A stretch of 64,000 bases of DNA from an uncultured bacterium (GTDB lineage Bacteria; Patescibacteriota; Minisyncoccia; Phycocordibacterales; UBA11359): contig CAIKZC010000002.1 of the NCBI GenBank assembly GCA_903831815.1, positions 7,244 to 71,243 of the forward strand, given 5' to 3'. Position numbers and translations under genes: made by a program. This document shows positions 2,849 through 50,900 of this stretch, piece after piece. Positions within the stretch are counted from its first letter, which is position 1; each line of letters starts with the position of its first letter. The notes under the pieces were generated by a model, which was given only the letters and a program-made list of their open reading frames with translations, ran no database searches and was not told the origin of the DNA.

Positions 2849-4711
2849 CTAGTAAGCTGGGGTCTCAACTAGATTTGCAATAGCAGTATTTGCTACGTTC
2901 GTGATTGTACCACGTACTAATCCAGTTACACCACCGGCAGATGCCAACTTTACAGTAAGAGTAAAGTTTGCAGTATCACCAGCAGAGATGGTGAAGTCAT
3001 TCGAACCATCCTTTGTCAAATCAGTGCTGTCAAGTACAGCATCAGTTGTAGTTGCGCCTGTAACATTGAAGACGACAACCTTTGCGCCAGCTGATTGGCT
3101 AGCCTGACCTGATGTCTTTCCAGTACCGAACTGATCTTGTGAAAGGGTAATATCGCTGTCACCCAAAGCTGCAACTTGGAAGGTCATCTTTAGGGTTCCA
3201 TCAATATGATCAGTTACGTTTGGAGCTACGTAAGAGCTAGATACAAGTCGTACCTGTGGTCCTGCGATAGCGAATGATTGTGTTTCGCCAGCTGCTGAAC
3301 CGGTAGGATTGATAGCATCGCCATTTGAATCCTCAGGAGCAAAAGCATCTGTTGAATCTGTATAACTTACAGAAGCAGTAGCTGCATCGCTTGATCCGAA
3401 GTTGGTTGAATCATTAACAGTTGCGTAAACACGGAAGACTGCAGTTGTGTTTGCGGCAATATTGAATGTGTCATCCAAGTTGAATGTAGCTGCTTGACCA
3501 CTTGTAAGTGTTGATCCATCGATAGTTGCGAGAACGGTTGAACCATTTCGAAGTTGCAATTCACCAATAACTCCTGGAGTACTTGTAGAAGTAGTTGGAG
3601 TTACTTGAATTGAATCGAATGATACAGCTGAATCGCTAGCCTTGACTTTGAATTCAAGCATCAAAACATCCTTTGTTGAAGCGGTGTCTGATACTTCAAC
3701 TCTCTGTGCTAATGGACTTCCTGAACCCTTTGAAACAACAACTTTAGCATTGCCTGATAGGGCTAGGCTAGTGAATTTGAAGGTCGCAGTTTGTGAGTTT
3801 GGATTCTCGGTAAGAATAGCACCAGTCGAATCTGTGAATCGAATGTTGCTGACAGTAAGAGTCCAGTTTGCATTAAAGTCGGTGGTGTCGATATTTTCGA
3901 CAGCATCAACAGTGACATAGAAGGTCTTCTTGTTGCCTGAACCGTCTCGAACAACTGCGTTTGAAAGCGAAATTGTCTTTGAGTAGGCATTACCAGACTT
4001 CGTGAAGTCAGCTACATCAGCTGAACCGATCTTGGTTGAACCATCCCATACGCTAACAGTGTTAACATATCGGCTAAGTCGTAGTGATGATGCGCTTGCG
4101 CCATCAGCTAGGAAGCTAACCTTAACGCTGGTAACAGCGATGTCAGATCCATCAGCCTCAACCTTGAAGCCGTAAACCTTAACATTGCTTGAACCTTCGT
4201 CAACAGATGACTCAACATCAGTTGCGGTCTTTGTAACAGTTGCGCTACCTGCGCCACCATTAAGAGAACCGTTTGATGCGCCTGGAGCTGACATACAGTT
4301 GCTTGCCAATGTCATACCATTTGGACATAGAGCACCTGCAGCTGCGCCTGGGGCAGTTGAACAGTTACTTGCTAGTGTCTTGCCATTTGGGCAAAGAGCA
4401 CCTGCAGCTGGAGCGCCGTTAAGAGCACCTCGAGTTATAGAACCAACGAAACCAGCTGCTGGCGTAATGCCATTTGCAACTTGGTATTTGATAACAGCAG
4501 CCTTTGTTGCAGCACCGAAGTATCCCATGCTGACGCCAGCTGGCATTGTCAAATAACCACCGCTAACGAGGGTTGTTTGAAGTGCAACTACGTCTGCACC
4601 TGTACTACCAACTGTAAGATTTGTATTGATTGCTGCGCTTGCAACAGTTGTGATGGTCAAAGCCATTGCAACTACGAAAGCTACGGCAAGAATTTTTGTA
4701 GATAATTTCAT
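2849..4711 (-). CDS. cell-surface protein: signal peptide, N-terminal peptidoglycan-binding domain, Cys-containing tandem repeats, long Ser/Thr-rich Ig-like region
   Basis: MKLSTKILAVAFVVAMALTITTVASA signal peptide. VVALQTTLVSGGYLTMPAGVSMGYFGAATKAAVIKYQVANGITPAAGFVGSITRGAL matches the PG-binding fold. Repeated APAAGALCPNGKTLASNCSTAPG units. Confidence 0.7.
   Translation of the reverse strand: MKLSTKILAVAFVVAMALTITTVASAAINTNLTVGSTGADVVALQTTLVSGGYLTMPAGVSMGYFGAATKAAVIKYQVANGITPAAGFVGSITRGALNGAPAAGALCPNGKTLASNCSTAPGAAAGALCPNGMTLASNCMSAPGASNGSLNGGAGSATVTKTATDVESSVDEGSSNVKVYGFKVEADGSDIAVTSVKVSFLADGASASSLRLSRYVNTVSVWDGSTKIGSADVADFTKSGNAYSKTISLSNAVVRDGSGNKKTFYVTVDAVENIDTTDFNANWTLTVSNIRFTDSTGAILTENPNSQTATFKFTSLALSGNAKVVVSKGSGSPLAQRVEVSDTASTKDVLMLEFKVKASDSAVSFDSIQVTPTTSTSTPGVIGELQLRNGSTVLATIDGSTLTSGQAATFNLDDTFNIAANTTAVFRVYATVNDSTNFGSSDAATASVSYTDSTDAFAPEDSNGDAINPTGSAAGETQSFAIAGPQVRLVSSSYVAPNVTDHIDGTLKMTFQVAALGDSDITLSQDQFGTGKTSGQASQSAGAKVVVFNVTGATTTDAVLDSTDLTKDGSNDFTISAGDTANFTLTVKLASAGGVTGLVRGTITNVANTAIANLVETPAY
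4297..4415 (-). repeat. in-frame tandem direct repeat, 2 x about 57 bp, inside the 2849..4711 CDS
   Basis: Near-identical 57-bp units (..CCATTTGGRCAWAGAGCACCTGCAGCTG..) encoding the duplicated Cys-containing ALCPNG(K/M)TLASNC peptide. Confidence 0.6.
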
Positions 4712-6073: not shown

Positions 6074-6301
6074 ATTAGTGTTTTAAATGTCTTATATAGA
6101 TTACGTGTCCTTTACTTACCTGTCCTATAACATTTCCACCTGTCTTTTAAAATAAATTAGAACGAATTTATGTCCATTATAGTATAGGACAAAGTTGAGC
6201 GTCAATATATACAAATTTGATAAATGTGCTCTTGATAGGGCACACTATCTTAAGATAAGATAAAATCTTTCTTGAGGTCTTTATGGAAATTTTAATATTT
6301 C

Positions 6302-6327
6302 TTTAGAATTTTTTTATAAATATTTTA
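6302..6327 (+). promoter_or_regulatory. shared AT-rich promoter-like motif, copy 3 (shorter), upstream of ftsK
   Basis: TTTAGAATTTTTTTATAAATATTTTA 57 nt before the ftsK ATG. Same gene-relative orientation as copies 1 and 2. Confidence 0.4.
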
Positions 6328-6383
6328 TCCCCTCTAGTATATGTTTATTATGTCCTCGTATGATATTATTACTCTAAACACAT

Positions 6384-10150: not shown

Positions 10151-10247
10151 CAAACAGGCAGTCCTGAGGGCACAGGTAAATTTCCTGCTGGAAATTTCCT
10201 TCACACTCGCGCCGTCGCGCTCCGTGAGTCCCTCAGGACTGCCTGTT
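10151..10247 (+). repeat. structured palindromic repeat element, copy A (about 100 nt; 68-nt conserved core with two internal hairpins; outer 19-bp stem)
   Basis: AAACAGGCAGTCCTGAGGG-[core GGGCACAGGTAAATTTCCTGCTGGAAATTTCCTTCACACTCGCGCCGTCGCGCTCCGTGAGTCCCTC]-AGGACTGCCTGTTT then TTTCGCTTT. Lies 12 nt after the recA stop, same orientation as recA. Four related copies elsewhere in the window. Confidence 0.8.
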
Positions 10248-10585
10248 TTTCGCTTTACCTCCTCTTCACTTGCATTTGCGAATCATCTGAGTAGTATGAT
10301 AAACAGAAATGATTGTTCTAATACCCTCTAACCTTGGGAGACTTATCCATGAGAACTTCAGTGTGGCCCGATTGGTTTCATCATCACGGAACCAAAGTCC
10401 GCGTCAAAGACGGATGCTCTCCAAATCTACTCATTCTGGAAAGTAGCGCCGGAAGTCTGGTGATACGGCGAAAGAGCGACAACAAATGGACTGTGGACTG
10501 GTAAGTCAGCCAATCCGAGGAAACAGGTGAATTTTCGACCGGAAGACGAATCTTCACGTCAGATGAACTTCGGATTGCCTTTGGA

Positions 10586-11859: not shown

Positions 11860-11914
11860 ATGGGTTTATAATAACACACTGTTTGATGATTTGTTGTGCA
11901 CATCTTTTGCGGAC

Positions 11915-12010
11915 GAGAGTGCCTATGCAGGGACTCACGGAGCGCGACTGGCGCGAGTGTGAAGGCAATTTTCAGCAGAAAATTGACCTGTGCCCTGCAT
12001 AGGCACTCTT
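11915..12010 (-). repeat. structured palindromic repeat element, copy B (reverse orientation, downstream of rpsR)
   Basis: Outer 17-bp perfect stem AGAGTGCCTATGCAGGG / CCCTGCATAGGCACTCT. Core is about 90% identical to copy A. Hairpin 1 is changed to CAATTTTC-TGCT-GAAAATTG, compensatory relative to A's AAATTTCC-TGCT-GGAAATTT. Confidence 0.8.
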
Positions 12011-12028
12011 GGTAGCAAAAGTAATACA

Positions 12029-12057
12029 CAAAAAAACCACCGAGCGGTGGTTTTTTT
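12029..12057 (-). terminator. bidirectional rho-independent terminator downstream of rpsR
   Basis: AAAAAAACCACCG-AGC-GGTGGTTTTTTT. Confidence 0.7.
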
Positions 12058-13248: not shown

Positions 13249-13305
13249 AAATTACAGCCTATCACAGGCCTTTTGGTTATGCAATAGTTATAGCAAATTA
13301 GGGTT

Positions 13306-13341
13306 AAAATATTTATAAAAAAATTATAAAGAAATTCTAAA
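13306..13341 (-). promoter_or_regulatory. shared AT-rich promoter-like motif, copy 2, upstream of rpsF-ssb-rpsR
   Basis: TAAAATATTTATAAAAAAATTATAAAGAAATTCTAAA, 34/37 identical to copy 1. 58 nt upstream of the rpsF ATG. Overlaps the 3' end of tatD. Confidence 0.5.
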
Positions 13342-14145
13342 GATTTTTAGAGCGTTATTTACAAGATTTTTTTTCATTTCTTCTGTTGAAATACCCTTTA
13401 TTTGAGCCATTTTTTCGACTACTTGTTCAACATAGGACGGTTCGTTGCGTTCACCTCGATGTGGAATTGGAGCCACAAACGGCGCATCAGTCTCACTCAT
13501 AATCATATCAAGCGGAGCGTATTTTACCGCTTCATCATAGGCTTTTACAAAAGTTATGACGCCGGTAAACGATACGGAAAAACCAAGATTCAGGTATTTT
13601 TGCTCAATTTCTGTTGTCCCCGTGAAAAAGTGGGCATTACCCCGCAATTTTTCGCCGTATATTTTCTTTTTTGCCGCTAAAATATCCAAAACATCTTCGT
13701 GAGCATTGCGCACATGCAACATCATCGGTTTGTCATACTTCGCCGCAAAGTCGATTTGTTTTTCAAAATCTTTTTTCTGGCGAATTTTATCTGCTTCGGT
13801 AATTGTGTCGCTCGGAATATTAGGATCATTTTTCGATCGACCGTAATCCAAACCACACTCACCTATCGCTACCACTTTTGGATGCACGACCAGTTTTGCA
13901 AACCCCTCTTCATTAAAAGTTTGTGTCGACACATCATCAGGACCATCGTGTGGATGAAGCCCGATAGCTGTATAAACATTTTTATGTTTCTCGGCAATTT
14001 CAATCTCTTTTTTTGAAGTTTCCAAATTTACGCCGACACTAATCGTCCAAACTCCCCTTTCCAACATACGAGCAATAACCTCCTCACGATCCTTGTCGTA
14101 GTCGGGAAAATGCAAATGTGAATGGATATCAAAAAATTCAGGCAT
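13324..14145 (-). CDS. tatD: TatD-family metal-dependent DNase/hydrolase
   Basis: FDIHSHLHF start motif, conserved His/Asp/Glu positions, 273 aa. Confidence 0.8.
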   Translation of the reverse strand: MPEFFDIHSHLHFPDYDKDREEVIARMLERGVWTISVGVNLETSKKEIEIAEKHKNVYTAIGLHPHDGPDDVSTQTFNEEGFAKLVVHPKVVAIGECGLDYGRSKNDPNIPSDTITEADKIRQKKDFEKQIDFAAKYDKPMMLHVRNAHEDVLDILAAKKKIYGEKLRGNAHFFTGTTEIEQKYLNLGFSVSFTGVITFVKAYDEAVKYAPLDMIMSETDAPFVAPIPHRGERNEPSYVEQVVEKMAQIKGISTEEMKKNLVNNALKIFRISL

Positions 14146-34095: not shown

Positions 34096-34177
34096 GGCCA
34101 GCTCCTTTTGTAAAAAGCCAAAGTTAAATCCTAAATATAATATAAGCCCAACTGAATAAAAAAGCAAAAAAGAGCCC

Positions 34178-34225
34178 CGGGTTTTGTTCGTCGCTTTCTT
34201 GCGACGAACAAAACCCGGGGTATAC
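34178..34225 (-). terminator. strong rho-independent terminator (21-bp perfect stem) after the 34228..34770 gene
   Basis: CCCCGGGTTTTGTTCGTCGC-TTTCTT-GCGACGAACAAAACCCGGGG. The minus strand continues CTCTTTTTTGCTTTTTT. Confidence 0.75.
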
Positions 34226-34227
34226 CC

Positions 34228-34770
34228 TCACCCGACACAACGAAGCAACTGGTCACAACCGAAAACAATCTTGCGATTCATGTCCCACCACTTGTCCCAT
34301 GGTCTGGCGACTTCAGCCTGAAGACAAAGCCGGCCATGATCATCTCCAAAGATCCTTAGGATGCAAGGATCGCTCGCCGAATCAAGGCGTTGATTCATGA
34401 CAAACCACAGGTCAATGCCCCTGTAAGTCGGCCGGCGGCTAAGGTGAACTGCGACAGCCAAAACGGCCTCGCTTGGACAGATCCGACCGCCTATACTTGG
34501 AATGTAACTCCAGATCTCGTGAGTGGCGGGGATGGATTCAAACAGCATATCGAGGCGAGCCGCAGCCAAATTGAGCGGTATCACACTTCGACACAGGCTA
34601 CTGAATCCCCTACTTTTGATCACGAAGTCGGCCTCCGGCAAAACATGAACGCCCACGGCATTCAAAATAAGTGCCCATTCATCCTCTGTTTTGTATGCCG
34701 CTTCGATCTGCATCCAAAACATTTCACGCGCACTTCTGACAGTACGTTTCTGGATTGTCATCTGTGACAT
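34228..34770 (-). CDS. GC-richer hypothetical protein (about 180 aa)
   Basis: RBS AGGAGG 7 nt before ATGTCACAGATG (MSQMTIQ...). Strong terminator downstream. No domain recognised. Confidence 0.45.
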   Translation of the reverse strand: MSQMTIQKRTVRSAREMFWMQIEAAYKTEDEWALILNAVGVHVLPEADFVIKSRGFSSLCRSVIPLNLAAARLDMLFESIPATHEIWSYIPSIGGRICPSEAVLAVAVHLSRRPTYRGIDLWFVMNQRLDSASDPCILRIFGDDHGRLCLQAEVARPWDKWWDMNRKIVFGCDQLLRCVG

Positions 34771-34884
34771 CGCGCATTCCTCCTGAAAAGAACTCCGTTT
34801 AAAATTCAAAACGATTGACGCTGACATTAATTAAACGTCCGCCAGATTACATTGTCAACGAATAAGTATTTAAAAAACAAAGTA

Positions 34885-34980
34885 AAAGAGCAGTTTTGAG
34901 GGACTCACGGAGCGCGACGGCGCGAGTGTGAAGGAAATTTCCAGCAGGAAATTTACCTGTGCCCTCAAAACTGCTCTTTT
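34885..34980 (-). repeat. structured palindromic repeat element, copy C (reverse orientation, 3' of rplK)
   Basis: Core identical to copy A over 68 nt. Outer 19-bp stem AAAAGAGCAGTTTTGAGGG / CCCTCAAAACTGCTCTTTT. T-run on the minus strand after the element. Confidence 0.8.
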
Positions 34981-35002
34981 ACTTTGCTTTCTACTCTTTT
35001 TA

Positions 35003-38317: not shown

Positions 38318-38814
38318 ATATGTAATATCTCCTGCAACATTTTGATTGCTCGATTGAGTTGGACTGAAACTGAATTTTCCGTACGTTTGACGATCTCTCC
38401 TATTTCCGACGGTGAAAGTCCTTCCACAAAACGCAATGTGACGACCTGTCGATATTTTTCCGGAAGCTTTGCGATCGCCTGACGAACTTTATCAATCTCC
38501 ATAAACTCCATGATTTTCCCTTCGTCGTCATCTTCTATATCAAAACCACTTTCTTGCATCATATCCAGCGAAACCATTTTCTTGCGACGATACTCGTCGA
38601 TGATCAAGTTGTTGGCTACCCGATAGACCAATGCGGTGGGATTTTTAATATCTGTGCCCCTGTCAAAATACTCCCAAACTTTCAAAAAAGCTTCTTGAGA
38701 AATCTCCAAGGCCCGTTCACGACTACTCAAACGAAAAAAGCAATGTCTGAATATCGCAGAGGAAAGCGTGTCATAAAGAGCTATAAAAGCTTGTTTTGTT
38801 TCCTCTTTGTCCAT
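38314..38814 (-). CDS. RNA polymerase sigma-70 factor, ECF subfamily
   Basis: Region 2 ...AFLKVWEYFDRGTDIKNPTALVYRVANNLIIDEYRRKK. Region 4 HTH LPEKYRQVVTLRFVEGLSPSEIGEIVKRTENSVSVQLNRAIKML. Confidence 0.85.
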   Translation of the reverse strand: MDKEETKQAFIALYDTLSSAIFRHCFFRLSSRERALEISQEAFLKVWEYFDRGTDIKNPTALVYRVANNLIIDEYRRKKMVSLDMMQESGFDIEDDDEGKIMEFMEIDKVRQAIAKLPEKYRQVVTLRFVEGLSPSEIGEIVKRTENSVSVQLNRAIKMLQEILHI

Positions 38815-39273
38815 ATATAGACGGTCTCAAAGGGCCGTTCTTACAGCATATAATACCACAAAAAACCAATACATAAAGCCCATTTTTGCATAAAAAAAGG
38901 CGGCAGGTGAGTATCATCCCTGGTATACAAGAGATTGAGTCACCAGACCGCCGTTGCTTCTAACGTCTATGCGAATGATCCGCAAGAAAATGCAAACCAT
39001 CGGCACCATGAACAAAATGGTCCAAACCTCCCTTCTCGTCTTTCGGCCAATCCATTCATGAACAGGCGCGATGATAAGTGTTGTGTCACCTCATGTGACA
39101 CGGTTCAACGATACGCTCTAACCGATGTTAGGGTCGTCGCGAGGTAGCACCATGACGGAACCTCCCTTCTATACTCAAGGATATTCCCACAAATATCGCG
39201 TGTCAAGTTCATAACAAAGCTCGCCATGCAGCCATCTTAAAAAAACTTTTAAATTACAAAATCAATTAGAAAA

Positions 39274-40251
39274 CTAATTATGCCATCTTCCGAAGATTCC
39301 GGCCGGTAAAAGTCTCCCGGTTTTTTCTTCTTCAATCGTGAGTTCCCCTACTTCAATAGAGCCGCCCCAATCAGCGGTTAAATTTTTTAAAATATTTTCT
39401 AAAGCGATAGCGGAATATCCAGCTGCATATCCGTTAATTAAAAAGAAAAGTGGTTTTGGCGCCATAATTTGCTTGCAAAGTTCAACTAATTGCAACAAAC
39501 TTTCTTCGATTTTCCAGACTTCACCGTTTGGTCCGCGTCCAAAAGCCGGCGGATCCATAATAATGCCGTCGTATTTTTTGCCTCTTTTAATTTCTCGCTT
39601 CACAAAAACAATCGCATCATCCAAAATCCAACGTATTTTTTTATCAGAAAGTCCGGAAATGTCGGCGTTGTCTTTAGCCCAGCTGATTGCCGATTTCGAG
39701 CCATCAACGTGACAGACATCGGCGCCGGCCTGGGCGGCGGCCAAAGTCGCGCCACCAGTATAACCAAATAAATTCAAAACAGAAATTTTCTCACTGCCGG
39801 CGCCGACATTTTTTTTATGATCCATTATTACATTTCGCAACCAATCCCAGTTTCCAACTTGCTCGGGAAAAACGCCGACATGTTTAAAGGCCGATGGTTT
39901 GATCCAAAACTTCAAACCACCTAGGATTATCTGCCACTTATCAGGCACATTCACCTTTAGTTTCCAAGCACTTTTTTCCTGTCTGCCACCTTTTGATTTT
40001 TCATCCTTTGATTTAGCTTCTTTTATACCTTCATTTTTAGCCATTTCATGAGCAAAAACACCTTGAGCCTTCTGCCAAACTTCAATAGGAGCACTTTTAG
40101 TCCACAATGCCTGCGGATCCGGACGAGCCAAAGTAAACACGCCGAAACGTTCCAGCTTCTCGCCTGCCCCGCTATCAATAAGAGCGTAATCAGCCACCGA
40201 TTTTGTAATCAAAATTTTTGGATTCATATGATGTGAGTTTATAAAATCCAC
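39274..40251 (-). CDS. class I SAM-dependent rRNA methyltransferase (RlmI/RlmK-like)
   Basis: SAM-binding site LNLFGYTGGATLAAAQAGA, DGSKSAI, IIMDPPAFG (the DPPxF motif of this family). Confidence 0.65.
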   Translation of the reverse strand: MDFINSHHMNPKILITKSVADYALIDSGAGEKLERFGVFTLARPDPQALWTKSAPIEVWQKAQGVFAHEMAKNEGIKEAKSKDEKSKGGRQEKSAWKLKVNVPDKWQIILGGLKFWIKPSAFKHVGVFPEQVGNWDWLRNVIMDHKKNVGAGSEKISVLNLFGYTGGATLAAAQAGADVCHVDGSKSAISWAKDNADISGLSDKKIRWILDDAIVFVKREIKRGKKYDGIIMDPPAFGRGPNGEVWKIEESLLQLVELCKQIMAPKPLFFLINGYAAGYSAIALENILKNLTADWGGSIEVGELTIEEEKTGRLLPAGIFGRWHN

Positions 40252-42536: not shown

Positions 42537-44867
42537 ATGAGTCCAACGACAAAAGCGGAAATAAAAAAAATTTCCAAGGCAGCAGATCTTATAAAAACGA
42601 TCCAAAAACGAGACGGTTCGCTTGTCGATTTTAATTTTGAAAAAATTGTTATTGCAATTAACAAGGCGATGAATGCTGTCGGTGAAGGTTCCGAGGACGA
42701 AGCCCGTATTGTCGCCACCAGAGTACTTTCCGAACTCGTGCGCATCAAGAAAAAATTCAAAAATTTCGTCCCGACCGTCGAAGGCGAACAGGATATCATC
42801 GAAAAAGAACTTATTTTAAGTGAATACGTGAAAACCGCTAAAGCTTACATTCTTTACCGCGAAGAAAGAAACAGAATTCGAGAAAAAAGACTCGAAGTTC
42901 CTGAAAATGTAAAAAAAATGGCGGAAGAAAGCAAAAAATACTTCCGCAACTCGCTCGGTGAATTCGTTTACTACCGATCTTACTCAAAATGGATCGACGA
43001 AGAAAATCGCCGAGAAACTTGGATTGAAACAGTCGATCGATATATTGCGTTCATGAAAGAAAATTTGGGCAACAAACTCAAAGACACCGAATACAAAGAG
43101 GTTCGTGAGGCGATTTTAAAACACGAGGCAATGCCATCGATGAGACTTTTGCAATTTGCCGGCAAAGCGGCTCGCGCGACGAACGTTTGCGCATACAATT
43201 GTTCGTTCATCGCTCCGACATCTTTTCAAGACCTCGCCGAGATCATGTACATTTCCATGTGTGGAGCCGGATCTGGCTGGGCAGTAGAAAGCACCAATGT
43301 TCAAAAATTTCCACAGATCGAGCCTCAGACCGGCGAAAAACTTCCGACATTTGTCATTCCCGATAGCAAGGAAGGTTGGGCCGACTCGCTTACTCTCGGT
43401 ATGAAGACTTGGGCCAGCGGCAAAGACATTGCTTTTGACTATTCACAACTTCGACCGGCAGGAGCACGACTTGCAACCATGGGAGGAAAATCATCCGGTC
43501 CTGCACCACTCATGAGACTTCACAATTTTACCCGCGACACAATGATGTTAAGACAAGGTAAACGTCTACGAAACATCGATGTACATGACATTATATGTAT
43601 GATTGGTGATTGTGTCGTTTCCGGTGGAGTTAGACGAAGCGCCATGATCTCGCTCTCCGACCTCGATGATGCCGAAATTCGAGATTCAAAGAAAGGTGCC
43701 TTCTACGTTGCTCATGGACACAGAATGTTGGCTAATAACTCGGCTGTTTATATCAATAAACCAAGTAATGAAGACTTCCTTAAAGAATGGATGGCTCTCA
43801 TTGAAAGTCACTCGGGAGAACGCGGTATTTTCAATCGAGGATCATTGGCTAAAACACTGCCGGAGAGACGTATAAAGGTCTTGAAACAATATAAAGGATA
43901 TTTTGACGCTTCAGGACAAAATATCATTGGACCGATCGGCACCAATCCTTGCGGAGAGATCATTTTGCAATCAAAACAGTTCTGTAACTTGTCCGAGATC
44001 GTCGCTCGAGCCGAAGATACCGAAAAAACTTTGTTAAAGAAAATGCGTATAGCCACGATCATCGGAACCTACCAATCATCTCTCACTTTCTTCCCTTACC
44101 TTTCAAAACAATGGCAAGAAAATTGCGAGAAAGAAAGATTACTGGGAGTTTCCGTAACAGGTCAATGGGATTCGCCTGTTGCTCGCAAACCGGAAGTTTT
44201 GAAAAAACTCCGCGAAGAAGCCATAAAACAAAATAAATTGTTCGCAAAAAGATTCGGTGTTGGCGAATCAACCGCCATCACTTGCGTAAAACCATCCGGG
44301 ACTCTTTCACAAACCGTTGATTGCTCATCCGGCATGCATCCACGACATTCTCCTTACTATATCCGACGTGTTCGCATCAGCGCCACCGACTCATTGTTCA
44401 AAATGCTTCGCGATCAAGGTGTACCCTATTTCCCGGAAGTTGGACAAACAATGGAAAATGCTTCAACTTATGTTTTGGAATTCCCTGTCGCCGCTCCGGC
44501 CGGTTCGATTTATAAAAACGACATTAGCGCCATTGATCAACTTGAGCACTGGAAGATCGTAAAAGTAAATTACACCGAACACAATCCATCCGTAACGGTT
44601 TCAGTTGGCGATAATGAATGGATCGAAGTAGCAAATTGGGTTTACAAAAATTGGGACATTGTCGGAGGTCTTTCATTCCTTCCACGAGACAATCACGTCT
44701 ATCAACTTGCCCCGTATGAAGCTATCGACAAGAAACGATACGAGGAACTTTCAAAACGACTTGAACACATCGATTACTCAAAGATCATTTCTTACGAGAA
44801 GAAAAATGAGCAAGATCTAAAGAGAGAGTTGGCGTGTGCGGGAGGTGTTTGTGAGACAGCATTATAA
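42537..44867 (+). CDS. nrdJ: class II (adenosylcobalamin-dependent) ribonucleotide reductase with N-terminal ATP-cone
   Basis: ATP-cone IQKRDGSLVDFNFEKIVIAINKAM. Catalytic NPCGEI motif. C-terminal Cys pair ACAGGVC. Start taken at MSPTTKAEI; the track ORF begins at 42477 with an implausible extension. Confidence 0.65.
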   Translation: MSPTTKAEIKKISKAADLIKTIQKRDGSLVDFNFEKIVIAINKAMNAVGEGSEDEARIVATRVLSELVRIKKKFKNFVPTVEGEQDIIEKELILSEYVKTAKAYILYREERNRIREKRLEVPENVKKMAEESKKYFRNSLGEFVYYRSYSKWIDEENRRETWIETVDRYIAFMKENLGNKLKDTEYKEVREAILKHEAMPSMRLLQFAGKAARATNVCAYNCSFIAPTSFQDLAEIMYISMCGAGSGWAVESTNVQKFPQIEPQTGEKLPTFVIPDSKEGWADSLTLGMKTWASGKDIAFDYSQLRPAGARLATMGGKSSGPAPLMRLHNFTRDTMMLRQGKRLRNIDVHDIICMIGDCVVSGGVRRSAMISLSDLDDAEIRDSKKGAFYVAHGHRMLANNSAVYINKPSNEDFLKEWMALIESHSGERGIFNRGSLAKTLPERRIKVLKQYKGYFDASGQNIIGPIGTNPCGEIILQSKQFCNLSEIVARAEDTEKTLLKKMRIATIIGTYQSSLTFFPYLSKQWQENCEKERLLGVSVTGQWDSPVARKPEVLKKLREEAIKQNKLFAKRFGVGESTAITCVKPSGTLSQTVDCSSGMHPRHSPYYIRRVRISATDSLFKMLRDQGVPYFPEVGQTMENASTYVLEFPVAAPAGSIYKNDISAIDQLEHWKIVKVNYTEHNPSVTVSVGDNEWIEVANWVYKNWDIVGGLSFLPRDNHVYQLAPYEAIDKKRYEELSKRLEHIDYSKIISYEKKNEQDLKRELACAGGVCETAL

Positions 44868-44895
44868 GAAATAATAGCTGTAAAAAGAAAAAGTA

Positions 44896-44990
44896 AAAAG
44901 CAGTTTTGTGGGCACAGGTAAATTTCCTGCTGGAAATTTCCTTCACACTCGGCCCGTCGGCCTCCGTGAGTCCCTCAAAACTGCTTTTTA
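44896..44990 (+). repeat. structured palindromic repeat element, copy D (3' of nrdJ, between convergent genes)
   Basis: Core identical to A except hairpin 2 reads GGCC-CGTC-GGCC instead of GCGC-CGTC-GCGC, which is compensatory. Outer stem AAAAAGCAGTTTTGTGGG / CCCTCAAAACTGCTTTTT followed by a T-run. Confidence 0.8.
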
Positions 44991-44998
44991 CTTTTTCT

Positions 44999-45565
44999 CT
45001 ACACACCTAGTGCTTGTGATGCCGAAGCTATCAAATAAATACCGATAAAGTTGAGGATCAAGGTCATAGGGATCAAATAGCGGGTTTTCATTTTTGAAAT
45101 TCCCATCAAACTGAGACCGATCTCGTCCGGCAGAGGAGAAATGATCACCACTGCTCCTACAAGCGGCCCGAACCATCGTAAAAAAGTAAAATGCGTCTTG
45201 CTTAAAATCTTCTTAAATCTTGAATCCTTGATCGCCCCCCTTACATCTTCGGAAAAAACATCTCGAATAAAATAAAAAATAATCAAGTCGCCGAGCATGG
45301 CGCCAAAAGCCCCCCATGCAGCCAGAGTAAAAGGGTCGATGCTTTTGGAAAGATGGGCAATGGCGATAGATGCTGGTGAGATTGTAAAAATACTTGTCCA
45401 AAAAAGTCCGGCGATAAAACTTTCAACAACAGACCATCCTTGCGAAACACTCAAAATTTTATCCAGAACACCAAATCTCACCAAAAAAATCGTGAACACG
45501 ATACTTAGACCCAAAATAAACATGTCACGTCGAAGATTTTTGTAGTAATCGATCTTTTTGATCAT
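44999..45565 (-). CDS. hypothetical integral membrane protein (about 5 TM)
   Basis: Hydrophobic segments throughout. No motif recognised. Confidence 0.4.
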   Translation of the reverse strand: MIKKIDYYKNLRRDMFILGLSIVFTIFLVRFGVLDKILSVSQGWSVVESFIAGLFWTSIFTISPASIAIAHLSKSIDPFTLAAWGAFGAMLGDLIIFYFIRDVFSEDVRGAIKDSRFKKILSKTHFTFLRWFGPLVGAVVIISPLPDEIGLSLMGISKMKTRYLIPMTLILNFIGIYLIASASQALGV

Positions 45566-46078: not shown

Positions 46079-46270
46079 ATGTGGCAAAATTGGGTAAACG
46101 CAATTCTTGGTCTCTGGATAATGCTCTCGTCGTTCTTAGGTATGAGCTTGAGCGCCATGATGACTAACTTATTGATCGTTGGTGCGGTAATTGCAATCTT
46201 GGGGTTCTGGGGGGCATATAGTGCAAGTCGTACATATGACTCATCGGAAAGTAGACATATGCATGCATAA
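46079..46270 (+). CDS. small hypothetical two-TM membrane protein (63 aa)
   Basis: MWQNWVNAILGLWIMLSSFLGMSLSAMMTNLLIVGAVIAILGFWGAYSA. Confidence 0.35.
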   Translation: MWQNWVNAILGLWIMLSSFLGMSLSAMMTNLLIVGAVIAILGFWGAYSASRTYDSSESRHMHA

Positions 46271-46303
46271 GATCAAAGTGCAGAAAAGATAGAGAAGAAA
46301 AAA

Positions 46304-46406
46304 GTAGAAAAGCAGCTCTCGAAGCACACGGAAATCGCCTTACTGGCGATTTCCTTATCCTCGCGCCAGTCGCGCTGCGGAGTGCTTCTGCGAGTTGCTT
46401 TTCTAC
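46304..46406 (+). repeat. structured palindromic repeat element, copy E (divergent variant; between convergent genes, overlapping the rarA stop region)
   Basis: Outer stem of about 24 bp, GTAGAAAAGCAGCTCTCGAAGCAC / GTGCTTCTGCGAGTTGCTTTTCTAC (a few mismatches). Hairpin 1 GGAAATCGCC-TTACTG-GCGATTTCC. Hairpin 2 CTCGCGCCAGTCGCGCT conserved. Followed by TTTTTAGTTTTT. Confidence 0.7.
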
Positions 46407-46409
46407 TTT

Positions 46410-47546
46410 TTAGTTTTTCTTATAGTATTTCTTGCCTTTCAATTTCTCCGGCAATAAGTCTTCCTTGGTATATTTCTCATAACCTTTTCCGTAATCAAGA
46501 TCTTTCATGAGTTTAGTTGGAGCATTCAGAATATTTAAAGGTATTGGCAAATTACCGAATTTTTTAGCGTCATCCAAAGCAGTCATGTAGGCATAATATG
46601 CCGACTTGTTTTTTGGCGCTTGTGAAAGATATACGACACCATGTCCCAAATTGATTCCCGCTTCGGGATATCCTATCGTCTCTACTGCTCTAAACACCGC
46701 ATTGGCCAACACCAAAGCGTGAGGGTCTTCCATACCGACATCTTCACTGGCAAAAATCACCATGCGCCGAGCAATAAATTTTGGGTCCTCCCCCGCTTCG
46801 ACCATACGAGCCAGATAATACAGCGCCGCATCCGGTTGACTGGCTCGCATGCTTTTTATAAAAGCGCTGATGGTGTTGTAGTGTTCATCGCCTTTTTTGT
46901 CATAACGCAAATATTTCGATTGCAGAGATTTCTTGAAATTTTCTATTGTCATCTCTCCGTACAATCTTTCGGTATTTTCGATCAAAGCGATAGCTTGTCG
47001 AGCATCACCACCCGATGCCGCCACGAGCCAATCCTCCACCTCTTTCGAAATATCAAAACCTGTACGTCCGATAATTGTTTTTATTTCATTCTCGGCCAAT
47101 TCGTTGAGCACAAAAACTTGGCAACGCGAGAGAAGTGCCGGGATAACTTCAAAACTCGGATTTTCGGTCGTTGCACCGATTAAAGTCAATTTACCGGATT
47201 CAACATAAGGCAAAAGAAAATCTTGTTGAGCTTTATTAAATCGATGAATCTCATCGAGAAACAATATTTTGGCGCCAAAAAGTCCGGCCGGTGCATTCAC
47301 GATTTCTCGAATATCATCTTTTCCGGCCGACACCGCCGAGAGCTCATGATATTCAGCCTTGAGCGATTTGGCGTATATTCTAGCCAACGTCGTCTTGCCG
47401 ACTCCGGGCGGTCCCCATAAAATAAAAGAGAAAAGATGTTTTTTGGCCACAGCAACGCCGATCGGTTTATCATCCCCGACCAAATGTTCCTGCCCGACAA
47501 ATTCAGAAAGGTCTTTCGGCCGTATCTTTGAAGCCAGCGGTTCCAT
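46410..47546 (-). CDS. rarA: replication-associated recombination protein A (AAA+ ATPase RarA/MgsA)
   Basis: Walker [10 protein letters not shown], Walker [11 protein letters not shown], sensor and arginine-finger regions, C-terminal MgsA helical domain. Confidence 0.85.
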
Positions 47547-48137: not shown

Positions 48138-50900
48138 TTACACCGGTTTAGCAACAATAGGCTCAGGTTTTTTGGAATATTTTTCGGCAATGTCGGCTTC
48201 GATTTCGGCGCGGTCGCGACCAAATTTTAGGAATGAAAGTTCTTTGAGAGCATCAAGGTGATCTTTTGAATTTACTGGTGGTGGTAAAGTTTCAATATTG
48301 AATGGTTTAACCGGACGGCCATCAACCAACAATTTTACGTAAGCATTTCGATTGTCGATGTTCATGATATCGGCGGCGAGAAACGGTTCAAATTGTTTGG
48401 CTAAAAACTCGGCATCTTCGGCACCGGTTCTAAAGGCGGCAATGGAGCCGACGTTACCGAACACGGCGTCACGAATATTTTCTTCAAGTTGAGCGATAAA
48501 TTGATGAGCAACGGTCAGCGACAATTTATACTTACGAGCTTCTGAAAGAATTGTGGCAATCGAGTCGGTGGTGACGTTTTGGAACTCATCGATATACAAA
48601 TAAAACGGTGGCAAATTTTTATCAACTGAATCAACTCGCGAAAGTGCAGACATCAAGATCTTGCCAACTAAAATGAGACCAATCAAATTGGCATTAATAT
48701 CACCGAGTCTACCTTTAGCCAAATTAACCAATAATATTTTTTTACCATCCATAACCTCACGGAAATTGAACGATGATTTCTGCTGTGAAATGATCGGCCG
48801 CATAATGTCGTTAGAAAGAAATACATCAAACTTGCTAGTGATATAAGGCACAATGTTGGCCAGCGACGCTTCCCCACCGGCTTTATCAGCCACCTCTTTC
48901 CAAAACTGAACCACAATCGGATTTTTGCAATGCGAAAGTTTCATTTCGCGGAAAGGTTTGTTGGCCAAAACTTTGGAAACATCGAGTAACGTATTCCCCG
49001 TTTCCGGATCTTCCATGACAAGCAAGACAGCATTTCTAAAATATTGTTCGAACATCGGACCGCCAGCCACTTTCATATCAAACAATTTATTGAAAATACT
49101 GAGCATCTCGTTGACCACAAAAGTTTTTTGCTCCGGATGATTTATATCGTACTCAAGCATGTTGATGGCCATTGGCCGCGCACTTTGACTTGGATCAAAA
49201 TAAATAACATCTTCGTAACGCTCTTTTGGCACAGCCGCCAAGACATCCAAAATATCAATGCCATGAGGGTCAATCATACAAACTCCGGCGCCTTGCTGAA
49301 TATCCTGAATAATCATGTTTTTGAGCATGGTTGATTTACCTGTTCCGGTCTGTCCAATGACATACAAGTGACGCAAACGGTCCTCAGCGGTCATATAGAC
49401 CTTAGTTTCAACGTTGCGGTGTCTATTAACCCCCATGAGCGTTCCAGAAGTCGGCATACCAACCGGTGCCGGAGCAGAGCCGGATTTTGCCTGTCGCAAT
49501 TGCGGAGCAGCATTACCAGTCGTTTGAAAGTGCATCAGCGAAGCCAGTTCGTGAATGTTGAGAGGAATTGATTCATCTTCATCAAAAATTCTAAAAGAAA
49601 AATCATGCAAGACGGCGTTGGTGGCGGACGTTTTCACTCGTTTAAATTTCAAACCGTTACCGAGCGTATTGTTGAACTGATTAAATGTCGCCTCAATTTC
49701 AGCCAGGATTTTTTCGGCATCAATTTCCGTTTGACCGGAAACCACAATTTTAATTGAAACTTCGACGATTGGATTGGAAACTTTTTTGGTTACAAGCTCG
49801 ATAGCTTGATCATCCATTTTTAACGGTTCTTTTTTCTCTTCTTCGTCTTTCTTTTTTTCGGTTTTAGCAAAAACGTCTCTTAATCCTTTCCAAACTTCGC
49901 CACCTATTGAATCCGGAACGTCCAACGCATCTTTTGTTTTTACCCCTTTGTGGAGTTGTTTCAATGCACCGCTGTAAAGTTTTACATAATGATCATCAGC
50001 CGGCCTGACCATCACCTGCAAACTGGCGCCCTCACCTATTTTCTTAATCTTGGAAAAACTATTTAAAATAATATTAAGTGGATCGTATTCAAATTCTTCA
50101 TAAGTCTTGATTGGATAGATGGATTTACCAGAAGATACAGCATACGAAACAACCGATACACCGGCTTCATCAAAAACATTGTAGTCGCCTGAAACTTCAA
50201 TAATTTTGGCATTAGGGAAAATAGCCAAAAGTTGTTTTTCAAAAAGATCTTTTTTGACATCCGGTACGGAAACATAAAATATCGATTCTTCGCTGTGATT
50301 TGGATTGGCGATTTCCAGAGAAAAATAATTGTCCTCAGCATTTTTGCCACCAGCAATCGAAAGCATGCCGGCATAAAACTGTTCCATTGAACCGATAAAT
50401 TCTTTCAATGTTTTCTCTTCAGACTGTTTATCGCCTTTGGGTAGTGCAATTTCAAAAAGCGTCATGTGCAAAGCCTTATACAAAGTGCTTTTATCTTTCA
50501 AACCATCTAAAGGAAAACCCTGTTTCAAATATTGCACCAAAAAGCGATGAAAATCGTCATCAATATGAGGATCATTTAACTTTTCGATAACGGAAAGTGT
50601 GTTCCAGATCCCCTTCTCCTGAAGGAGACCCAGTAATTCGGCAATTTTTTCATCATGTTCCTCCGGCTCTAAATCAAGGACGATTTTCTCGATTTTTTTA
50701 TCCGAGAGCTGCATTTTAGGATGCAAAACTTCGTTGATTGGCTGTTTTTTATATTCCTCAACTGTTTTTTGAACCAAAGAATGCATCTCTTGTCGCGTTT
50801 CGGCCGTGCTGGCGTGTTCATAGACTTTGGCCCGCAAATATTCAAGTTCTTCTTCCGGAGTTTTAAATACCGGTATTTCGTTTGTTTGAAGTTTCTCCAT
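48138..50900 (-). CDS. 920-aa soluble protein with C-terminal VirD4/TraG/TrwB-type coupling-protein (T4CP-like) P-loop ATPase domain
   Basis: Walker A YVIGQTGTGKST. Walker-B-like FYLYIDEFQNV. TVAHQ...FRTG region parallels TrwB's VVAGLQS...FRS. No predicted TM helices. The N-terminal 480 aa are unrecognised. Confidence 0.55.
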   Translation of the reverse strand: MEKLQTNEIPVFKTPEEELEYLRAKVYEHASTAETRQEMHSLVQKTVEEYKKQPINEVLHPKMQLSDKKIEKIVLDLEPEEHDEKIAELLGLLQEKGIWNTLSVIEKLNDPHIDDDFHRFLVQYLKQGFPLDGLKDKSTLYKALHMTLFEIALPKGDKQSEEKTLKEFIGSMEQFYAGMLSIAGGKNAEDNYFSLEIANPNHSEESIFYVSVPDVKKDLFEKQLLAIFPNAKIIEVSGDYNVFDEAGVSVVSYAVSSGKSIYPIKTYEEFEYDPLNIILNSFSKIKKIGEGASLQVMVRPADDHYVKLYSGALKQLHKGVKTKDALDVPDSIGGEVWKGLRDVFAKTEKKKDEEEKKEPLKMDDQAIELVTKKVSNPIVEVSIKIVVSGQTEIDAEKILAEIEATFNQFNNTLGNGLKFKRVKTSATNAVLHDFSFRIFDEDESIPLNIHELASLMHFQTTGNAAPQLRQAKSGSAPAPVGMPTSGTLMGVNRHRNVETKVYMTAEDRLRHLYVIGQTGTGKSTMLKNMIIQDIQQGAGVCMIDPHGIDILDVLAAVPKERYEDVIYFDPSQSARPMAINMLEYDINHPEQKTFVVNEMLSIFNKLFDMKVAGGPMFEQYFRNAVLLVMEDPETGNTLLDVSKVLANKPFREMKLSHCKNPIVVQFWKEVADKAGGEASLANIVPYITSKFDVFLSNDIMRPIISQQKSSFNFREVMDGKKILLVNLAKGRLGDINANLIGLILVGKILMSALSRVDSVDKNLPPFYLYIDEFQNVTTDSIATILSEARKYKLSLTVAHQFIAQLEENIRDAVFGNVGSIAAFRTGAEDAEFLAKQFEPFLAADIMNIDNRNAYVKLLVDGRPVKPFNIETLPPPVNSKDHLDALKELSFLKFGRDRAEIEADIAEKYSKKPEPIVAKPV

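Follow-up and report, generated by a model that had tools for sequence, protein, structure and literature searches.

The ERIC (IRU) sequences of Enterobacteriaceae and Vibrio are imperfect palindromes of about 100-130 nt that lie in transcribed intergenic regions in either orientation, are conserved across genera and form long RNA hairpins with a reported effect on mRNA stability. REP/BIME elements and REPINs, together with their RAYT transposases, represent a second type: multi-copy extragenic palindromes at the 3' ends of genes, which stabilise mRNA 3' ends, in some cases terminate transcription, and have been proposed to move as single-stranded hairpins. The Correia (NEMIS) elements of Neisseria and the Rickettsia palindromic elements are short, scattered in small or compact genomes and co-transcribed with their neighbours; Correia elements are moreover cut by RNase III and can terminate transcription. 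The subject here is a family of palindromic intergenic repeats that is widespread in Patescibacteria (CPR bacteria) and had not been catalogued before; it is best filed with the ERIC, REP/BIME and Correia-like repeats. It is unusual in that the branched tip of the hairpin, and not its stem, is conserved, and in that this conservation spans the CPR superphylum. The genomes of these bacteria measure about 1 Mb and hold very little non-coding DNA, and their gene regulation and RNA processing are little understood. Because these genomes are so compact, and because the tip is conserved while the stems change by compensation, this branched repeat is a rare candidate for a CPR-specific non-coding functional element. 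The copies discussed first, A to E, come from the window, that is, the whole stretch of 64,000 nucleotides that was analysed.

Each of the known systems differs from the CPR repeat in defined ways. ERIC sequences have a conserved overall consensus that includes their ends, a TA target duplication and no branched tip, whereas the CPR repeat has a variable stem and a branched tip conserved across a superphylum, in another host group. REP elements and REPINs conserve the stem and vary the loop; the CPR repeat does the reverse and so falls outside that definition. REP families are also specific to a genome or a genus, whereas the CPR repeat is found superphylum-wide. Correia and Rickettsia elements have conserved terminal inverted repeats and lack a conserved three-way-junction tip; Correia elements come with TA duplications, and Rickettsia elements often lie in frame inside genes. 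Comparison with the terminal inverted repeats of MITEs gives a mixed result: copies C, D and E share their distal arms while A and B differ, and across genomes the arms are unrelated and the centre is conserved. In architecture only, a long stem capped by two small hairpins recalls the T-shaped inverted terminal repeats of adeno-associated virus, which occur in flip and flop orientations owing to their palindromic arms. Those repeats, however, are the termini of a linear single-stranded DNA virus and the sites of Rep binding and nicking, whereas the CPR copies are internal to the chromosome, with no Rep-like context seen and no sequence relation to the viral repeats. Integron attC sites were also considered and rejected: the CPR repeat has a conserved centre, a variable base and dispersed copies in both orientations, whereas attC sites have their boxes at the stem base and form arrays of one orientation.

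Copy E occupies 46299-46411 (plus strand), as delimited by its predicted fold and its covariance-model match. A preliminary description had located the element correctly, with slightly narrow bounds (46304-46406). The minimum-free-energy fold consists of a long outer stem whose tip is formed by two small hairpins at a three-way junction. This outer stem contains 28 pairs with small bulges, a higher number than the about 24 bp counted earlier, and it joins a 5' arm (46299-46327, plus strand; A-rich AAAAAGTAGAAAA, then G+C-rich GCAGCTC(T)CGAAGCAC) to a 3' arm (46382-46411, plus strand; GTGCTTC(T)G(C)GAGTTGC, then T-rich TTTTCTACTTTTT), with an imperfect extension to about 46421. Enclosed by the stem is a 54-nt two-hairpin module (46328-46381), in which the predicted fold places hairpin 1 at 46330-46354 (plus strand; GGAAATCGCC / TTACT / GGCGATTTCC) and, at 46358-46381 (plus strand), a short TCC/GGA stem around hairpin 2, (C)GCGC / CAGTC / GCGC. 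The folding energy is -65.8 kcal/mol (z = -10.5), and an equally good fold was found in 0 of 200 shuffles. All five copies have the same fold shape, with z-scores of -9 to -11. The three-way junction of E (outer stem, hairpin 1, CCUU, short stem with hairpin 2) is also that of A-D and of the copies in other genomes, hairpin 2 being defined in the family as GSSC / C(N)GUC / GSSC.

The element lies between two convergent genes. On one side is rarA (46410-47546, minus strand; stop codon 46410-46412), which encodes an MgsA-family AAA+ ATPase (Pfam MgsA_C, 2.6e-49, with AAA_assoc_2, AAA and RuvB_N); on the other is a gene for a small SPW-repeat membrane protein of 63 residues (46079-46270, plus strand; stop codon 46268-46270; Pfam SPW, 5.3e-09). 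E had been reported to end a few nucleotides from the rarA stop codon; this adjacency holds, but the base of the stem (46410-46411) actually overlaps two bases of that codon on the minus strand. Two genes upstream of rarA, the window encodes a 920-residue protein with DUF8128, DUF87 and type-IV-secretion coupling-protein domains (48138-50900, minus strand), and this gene is conserved at the same place in the Taylorbacteria relative discussed below.

The core segment of E is identical to the version in copy B, as previously noticed: the 17-mer CTCGCGCCAGTCGCGCT has exactly two sites in the window, one in E (46360-46376, plus strand) and one in B (11941-11957, minus strand), with 0.00 expected by chance. 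Since the region of E is A/T-rich and palindromic, and the exact word common to both copies is just 17 nt long, E could in principle be a random palindrome of A/T-rich intergenic DNA in which a short G+C-rich word of B recurs by coincidence. Several results speak against this. A degenerate core pattern was scanned against one genome per species and gave 112 stretches, of which about 50 are in Patescibacteria (CPR) assemblies, the remainder being high-GC chance or coding matches. A covariance model, R1, was then built from 48 CPR copies, with the window sequences left out. It has exactly five matches in the window, scoring 91.9 (C), 89.4 (B), 88.8 (A), 87.8 (D) and 57.3 bits (E; E = 6.5e-14, match 46308-46402), whereas the best non-family site, with filters off and both strands searched (128 kb), reaches 11.8 bits. 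High-GC loci of other phyla that hold the search pattern obtain at most 27 bits, so about 30 bits of the score of E come from outside the pattern. With a sequence-only profile made from 61 non-window copies, E scores 32.8 bits, against a maximum of 8.3 bits over 1000 dinucleotide shuffles and of 4.2 bits over 1000 controls in which the palindromic arms of E were kept and the core alone was shuffled. None of these 2000 controls reaches the score of E. Near-identical cores are, in addition, present in unrelated metagenome contigs. Because neither the shuffled nor the arm-preserving controls ever attain its score, E is a true member of the branched hairpin repeat family. Both the covariance-model scoring and the comparison with random AT-rich palindromes, which the preliminary description had put forward as checks, thus place E in the family, and a chance palindrome can be discounted for practical purposes on the model score, the pattern-only loci, the permutations and the metagenome cores together.

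The other four copies in the window, recovered by repeat detection and alignment, all belong to subfamily I. Copy A (10152-10248, plus strand) begins 13 nt after the recA stop codon. Copy B (11914-12011, minus strand), between efp and ssb, has an extra A in the hairpin-2 loop. Copy C (34884-34980, minus strand; repeat pair I11) lies just after rplK, with arms extending to 34871-34993. Copy D (44894-44990, plus strand; repeat pair I5) has the hairpin-2 stem GGCC/GGCC and is located between convergent ribonucleotide reductase and VTT-domain genes, its arms (44864-45020) touching both stop codons. Three of the five copies are between convergent genes, A and C being between co-directional ones. 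The outer stem of B has two tiers and reaches 11890-12035, as if the repeat had entered a pre-existing hairpin. Immediately adjacent, at 12030-12055 (minus strand), is a plain terminator, AAAAACCACCGCTCGGTGGTTTTTTT, so that B is probably not the terminator at its own junction. After rplK, in the usual place of rplA (ribosomal protein L1), we noted a gene (34228-34827, minus strand) for a 199-residue protein with no Pfam match, followed by a very strong 20-bp terminator (34175-34220); some Parcubacteria have been reported to be without L1.

Family copies also follow recA, the ribonucleotide reductase gene and rplK in distant CPR genomes (L028:4412-4508, L031:7719-7815 and L049:3600-3697), where the window has copies A, D and C; this recurrence could be due to chance, to selection for strong terminators or to targeting. 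The two recA-associated copies, in the window and in L028, have opposite orientations. The flanking genes, identified by eye from translations, are diverse housekeeping genes, for example recA, gyrB, proS, dnaE, dnaX, ftsW, relA, trmD and an xerC-like gene. A link to particular neighbour genes was rejected, as only recA, the reductase gene and rplK recur, about as often as chance plus the need for a terminator would give.

According to the pattern scan of CPR assemblies, the family ranges over Saccharibacteria, Paceibacterota, Colwell-, Yanofsky-, Taylor-, Uhr- and Nomurabacteria. Copy numbers are five in the 64-kb window, at least seven in a 645-kb Colwellbacteria scaffold and at least nine in one Saccharibacteria MAG. 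In an alignment of 63 copies to the model, the paired fraction of cells is 91.2%, compared with 54.8% in shuffles; for the same 63 copies the covariation score is 0.819, against 0.18 in shuffles and 0.09-0.21 when the partners are slid, and 23 of the 26 pairs change on both sides across the family. The hairpin-2 stem covaries as well (GCGC, GGCC, GGGC/GCCC, GGAC/GTCC and GCTC/GAGC, the last two from copies missed by the pattern). The long stem, typically of 30-45 bp in the family, varies between copies and genomes, while a branched tip module of about 65 nt is conserved; it combines a hairpin 1 that is free in sequence if paired, the CCUU junction and a sequence-conserved hairpin 2. The suggestion that the family is older than the near-identical copies A, C and D and diversifies while preserving its fold is thus well founded, considering its presence in Saccharibacteria and many Parcubacteria lineages, its strong covariation and its compensated stem changes.

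No description of this branched repeat family was found by full-text searching of the published literature. At the gathering score, Rfam 15 gave no relevant match in the whole window or in L118, tRNAs being the only hits beyond hairpin noise; with E up to 10, on both strands around A and E, only generic long-hairpin microRNA models appeared. A phage or viral origin was considered and rejected, the family being essentially absent from phage records and viral contigs: no blastn match was obtained in 50,697 phage records, and IMG/VR contained two pattern matches, with a sole model match of 18.9 bits. Three further loci (L014, L096 and L104, assembly CAYJLM01) come from a MAG labelled 'uncultured Gammaproteobacteria' with a GC content of about 0.48; their copies are of almost the same type as the Candidatus Uhrbacteria copies (L082, L088), and CAYJLM01 is probably a mislabelled or contaminated CPR bin.

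Within the family, the core of E is 49-56% identical to those of A-D in the model alignment and about 70% identical in direct pairwise alignment. By the direct pairwise measure it is about 82% identical to a metagenome copy, L124; in the model alignment it is 75% identical to another locus in the Taylorbacteria relative (L120:19498) and 62-67% identical to copies in Saccharibacteria and in an unclassified CPR genome. A metagenome scan with a subfamily-specific pattern yielded six more copies. On sequence comparison, E falls into a distinct, independently conserved subfamily II whose nearest relatives lie in other genomes, and the two subfamilies coexist in the window genome and in distant CPR lineages.

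The comparison of E with L124 is a clean natural experiment. Hairpin 1 of L124 reads GGAATTTTTC / TTACT / GAAAAATTCC, and over the 62-nt conserved core GCACACGG...TTACT...CCTTATCCTCGCGCCAGTCGCGCTGCGGAGTGC the two copies differ only by four fully compensated hairpin-1 pairs. This agrees with the earlier observation, also apparent from the fold, that E keeps the architecture of hairpin 1 with different stem bases. It follows from the same comparison that hairpin 1 is free in sequence but bound to pair, and that the rest of the tip is constrained in sequence. Because the core of L124 matches that of E except for these compensated pairs, E is not a decaying copy of A-D, nor did it diverge from them within the window genome. 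As a divergent copy it does testify to an older, fold-preserving family, as proposed, and it reveals a second conserved subfamily. Its distal arms, AAAAAGTAGAAAAGCAG, are nevertheless similar to those of C and D, and E is consequently a mosaic, with C/D-like arms and a core of subfamily II.

Judged by RarA homologues, the window belongs to Parcubacteria/Paceibacterota, in the vicinity of Candidatus Taylorbacteria. Five syntenic relatives, with RarA 83-87% identical, formed the comparison set. All five lack a copy at the rarA end (E site) and at the ribonucleotide-reductase end (D site) and have copies elsewhere; their intergenic DNA has diverged too far to compare empty with filled sites base by base. 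The SPW orthologue adjoins rarA in L120/L121, and plain bidirectional terminators are present there at the orthologous rarA/SPW and reductase junctions. In the Taylorbacteria relative, the plain bidirectional terminator of the rarA/SPW junction is CTAAAAAACACTC-ACAGA-GAGTGTTTTTTAG, and the plain terminator of the reductase junction is AAGCAACAAAAAACTCC-GTTATAAA-GGAGTTTTTTGTTGCTT. In L118, terminator-like arms surround a different structured insert of about 105 nt, which recurs in L119.

The insert of L118 and L119 is the core of a second palindromic element, unrelated to the branched family, which was observed at L118:12141-12250, L119:14113-14211 and L116:17183-17385. It occupies terminator positions in the relatives and is absent from the window; Rfam gave no match for it in L118. 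The L116 element has lost its own tip to an R1-type copy, so that one repeat is nested in the other. Among the copies of one Colwellbacteria genome, arm type and hairpin-1 type vary independently of each other. Diversity-generating retroelement genes (bAvd and reverse transcriptase) and a gene of about 234 residues are found in L116 and L119 at the position that corresponds to window region 38814-39274, where the window has 460 nt of intergenic DNA following a methyltransferase gene. That region has a strongly negative predicted folding energy (-148 kcal/mol for 496 nt, a value with no shuffled sequences as control), and an Rfam scan of 38750-39330 with E up to 1 gave no match. A link between the repeat family and the retroelements of the relatives was rejected because the positions are inconsistent.

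As regards function, E is built like a bidirectional intrinsic terminator. Its stem has the order A-tract, G+C-rich segment, T-tract, the G+C-rich part being GCAGCTC..GAAGCAC / GTGCTTC..GAGTTGC followed by TTTTCTACTTTTT on both strands, and the T count is 7 of 8 on both sides. Among the window copies, A, C, D and E have 6-7 T out of 8 on both sides and B has 3-4. In the whole family, T-tracts are present on both sides in 52% of copies, against 21% expected, and the T-tract is not clear on a given side in a third to a half of the copies. E shares with such terminators this order of tracts and stem and the location between convergent genes. It differs in that its loop is a conserved 65-nt two-hairpin module and not 3-8 nt long, and in that it belongs to a sequence family common to different loci and phyla. 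Known intrinsic terminators have loops of 3-8 nt; E, with its 54-nt module, lacks such a short loop, although it has the G+C-rich stem and U-tract on both strands. The element was not called by a consensus terminator scan, and the window genome also has plain long-stem terminators elsewhere.

We lean, with modest confidence, towards the reading that E is a palindromic repeat that has been gained and lost, of the branched-tip family (subfamily II), and that it is a putative two-way terminator. Given the order of A-tract, G+C-rich stem and T-tract, E would end both the SPW and the rarA transcripts, and it would leave each with a protective 3' hairpin. It would take the place of the plain bidirectional terminator that the relative has at the same junction, and this terminator gives independent support to a two-way terminator role, which we regard as plausible. 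If the repeat is indeed a terminator module, it would help to annotate the transcription units of thousands of uncultured genomes. Termination does not, however, explain the sequence conservation of the tip across the superphylum.

Alternatively, the tip might be a strand-specific functional RNA (a protein-binding 3'-UTR module, a small RNA processed by RNase III at the long stem, or a new self-cleaving ribozyme), the long stem being a mere scaffold for processing or presentation. A hairpin 2 and junctions conserved in sequence superphylum-wide, next to a hairpin 1 conserved in pairing only, are typical of functional RNAs, and the 28-45 bp stems have the length cut by RNase III. The reverse-complement strand also folds about 8 kcal/mol better in 56 of 60 copies (E being an exception, with -70.2 kcal/mol on the plus strand and -64.4 on the minus strand) and has more G-U pairs in the outer stems (144 vs 98), which hints at a strand-specific constraint. 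This asymmetry in G-U pairs is weak, however, and dominated by a few within-genome subfamilies, and the pairs are not commoner on the mRNA-sense strand (58 vs 55). The copies face with transcription in 14 cases and against it in 13 (approximate counts, from crude ORF calls), and in A and C the better-folding strand is antisense to both neighbours. No Rfam family, known ribozymes included, matches either strand at E up to 10, and the junction strands, read from the sequence, are too short for a hammerhead core. The hammerhead core, a kink-turn, attC and a loop-loop pairing of both hairpins were each considered from the sequence and rejected, because junction and loop lengths did not fit or covariation was absent. 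The orientation, G-U and mosaicism data fit a DNA-level repeat and argue against an RNA role specific to the sense strand; we consider the functional-RNA explanation unlikely.

A DNA-level repeat could also be purely selfish, that is, a MITE- or REPIN-like element moved by a transposase that recognises single-stranded DNA hairpins. Gene ends would then be only the place where compact genomes tolerate insertions, and any terminator activity would be incidental. Presence and absence do differ among relatives, one copy is nested in another palindromic element (L116), copies are mosaic, orientation does not depend on transcription, a single small genome holds several copies, and the covariation of the hairpins implies that a single-stranded form matters. 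Against this, no transposase was found beside the copies, whose neighbours are the housekeeping genes listed above. No direct repeats indicative of target-site duplication were seen at the copy boundaries, which are A/T-rich and poorly defined, in the window and in the Colwellbacteria alignments, and conservation is greatest in the centre and not at the ends, whereas MITEs and REPINs have the reverse pattern. Upstream of a sigma-70 gene, two relatives have kept orthologous copies (L119:17859 and L120:20350) that differ by three compensated pair changes in their arms, which points to selection on the fold. Copies lie at the same gene ends (recA, reductase, rplK) even in distant lineages, and the family is essentially missing from viral contigs and phage records. 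Taken as a whole, a purely selfish origin seems to us unlikely.

The favoured reading of E as a gained-and-lost repeat with a putative terminator function extends to the way in which the copies spread. At the DNA level, copies would come and go and exchange parts, either because one copy is copied into or converts another, or because a hairpin already present receives an insertion at its tip or has the tip replaced. The tip would be flipped whenever the long inverted arms recombine with each other, and this would account for both orientations relative to transcription. The repeat would be tolerated or selected at terminator positions, and its conserved tip is presumably recognised by a factor acting on single-stranded nucleic acid; no enzyme able to copy or move the element was identified.

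We also tentatively consider, as possible but doubtful, that the two-hairpin tip is a new CPR-specific module riding on terminator hairpins, either a recognition site or a structured RNA. As a recognition site, it may serve a system that acts on single-stranded DNA and puts new sequences into hairpin tips or exchanges those present there; as a structured RNA, it may represent a new class, protein-binding or catalytic, released from mRNA 3' ends. Should such a module exist, both subfamilies would be old and would have coexisted since before the split of Saccharibacteria and Parcubacteria. Recognition of the tip by a dedicated enzyme, or its activity as an RNA, would indicate new biology.

Finally, two other repeats were observed in the window. 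A tandem 66-nt repeat at 4263-4394, with two copies 71% identical, lies within a 620-residue ORF (2849-4711, minus strand). An A/T-rich sequence of about 40-70 nt (TTAAAATATTTATAAAAAAAT.ATAAAGAAATTCTAAA) is found in three intergenic regions (543-625, 6278-6346, inverted, and 13272-13347) with 75-90% identity (repeat families D2, I3 and I7), and it could be a shared promoter or regulatory region.
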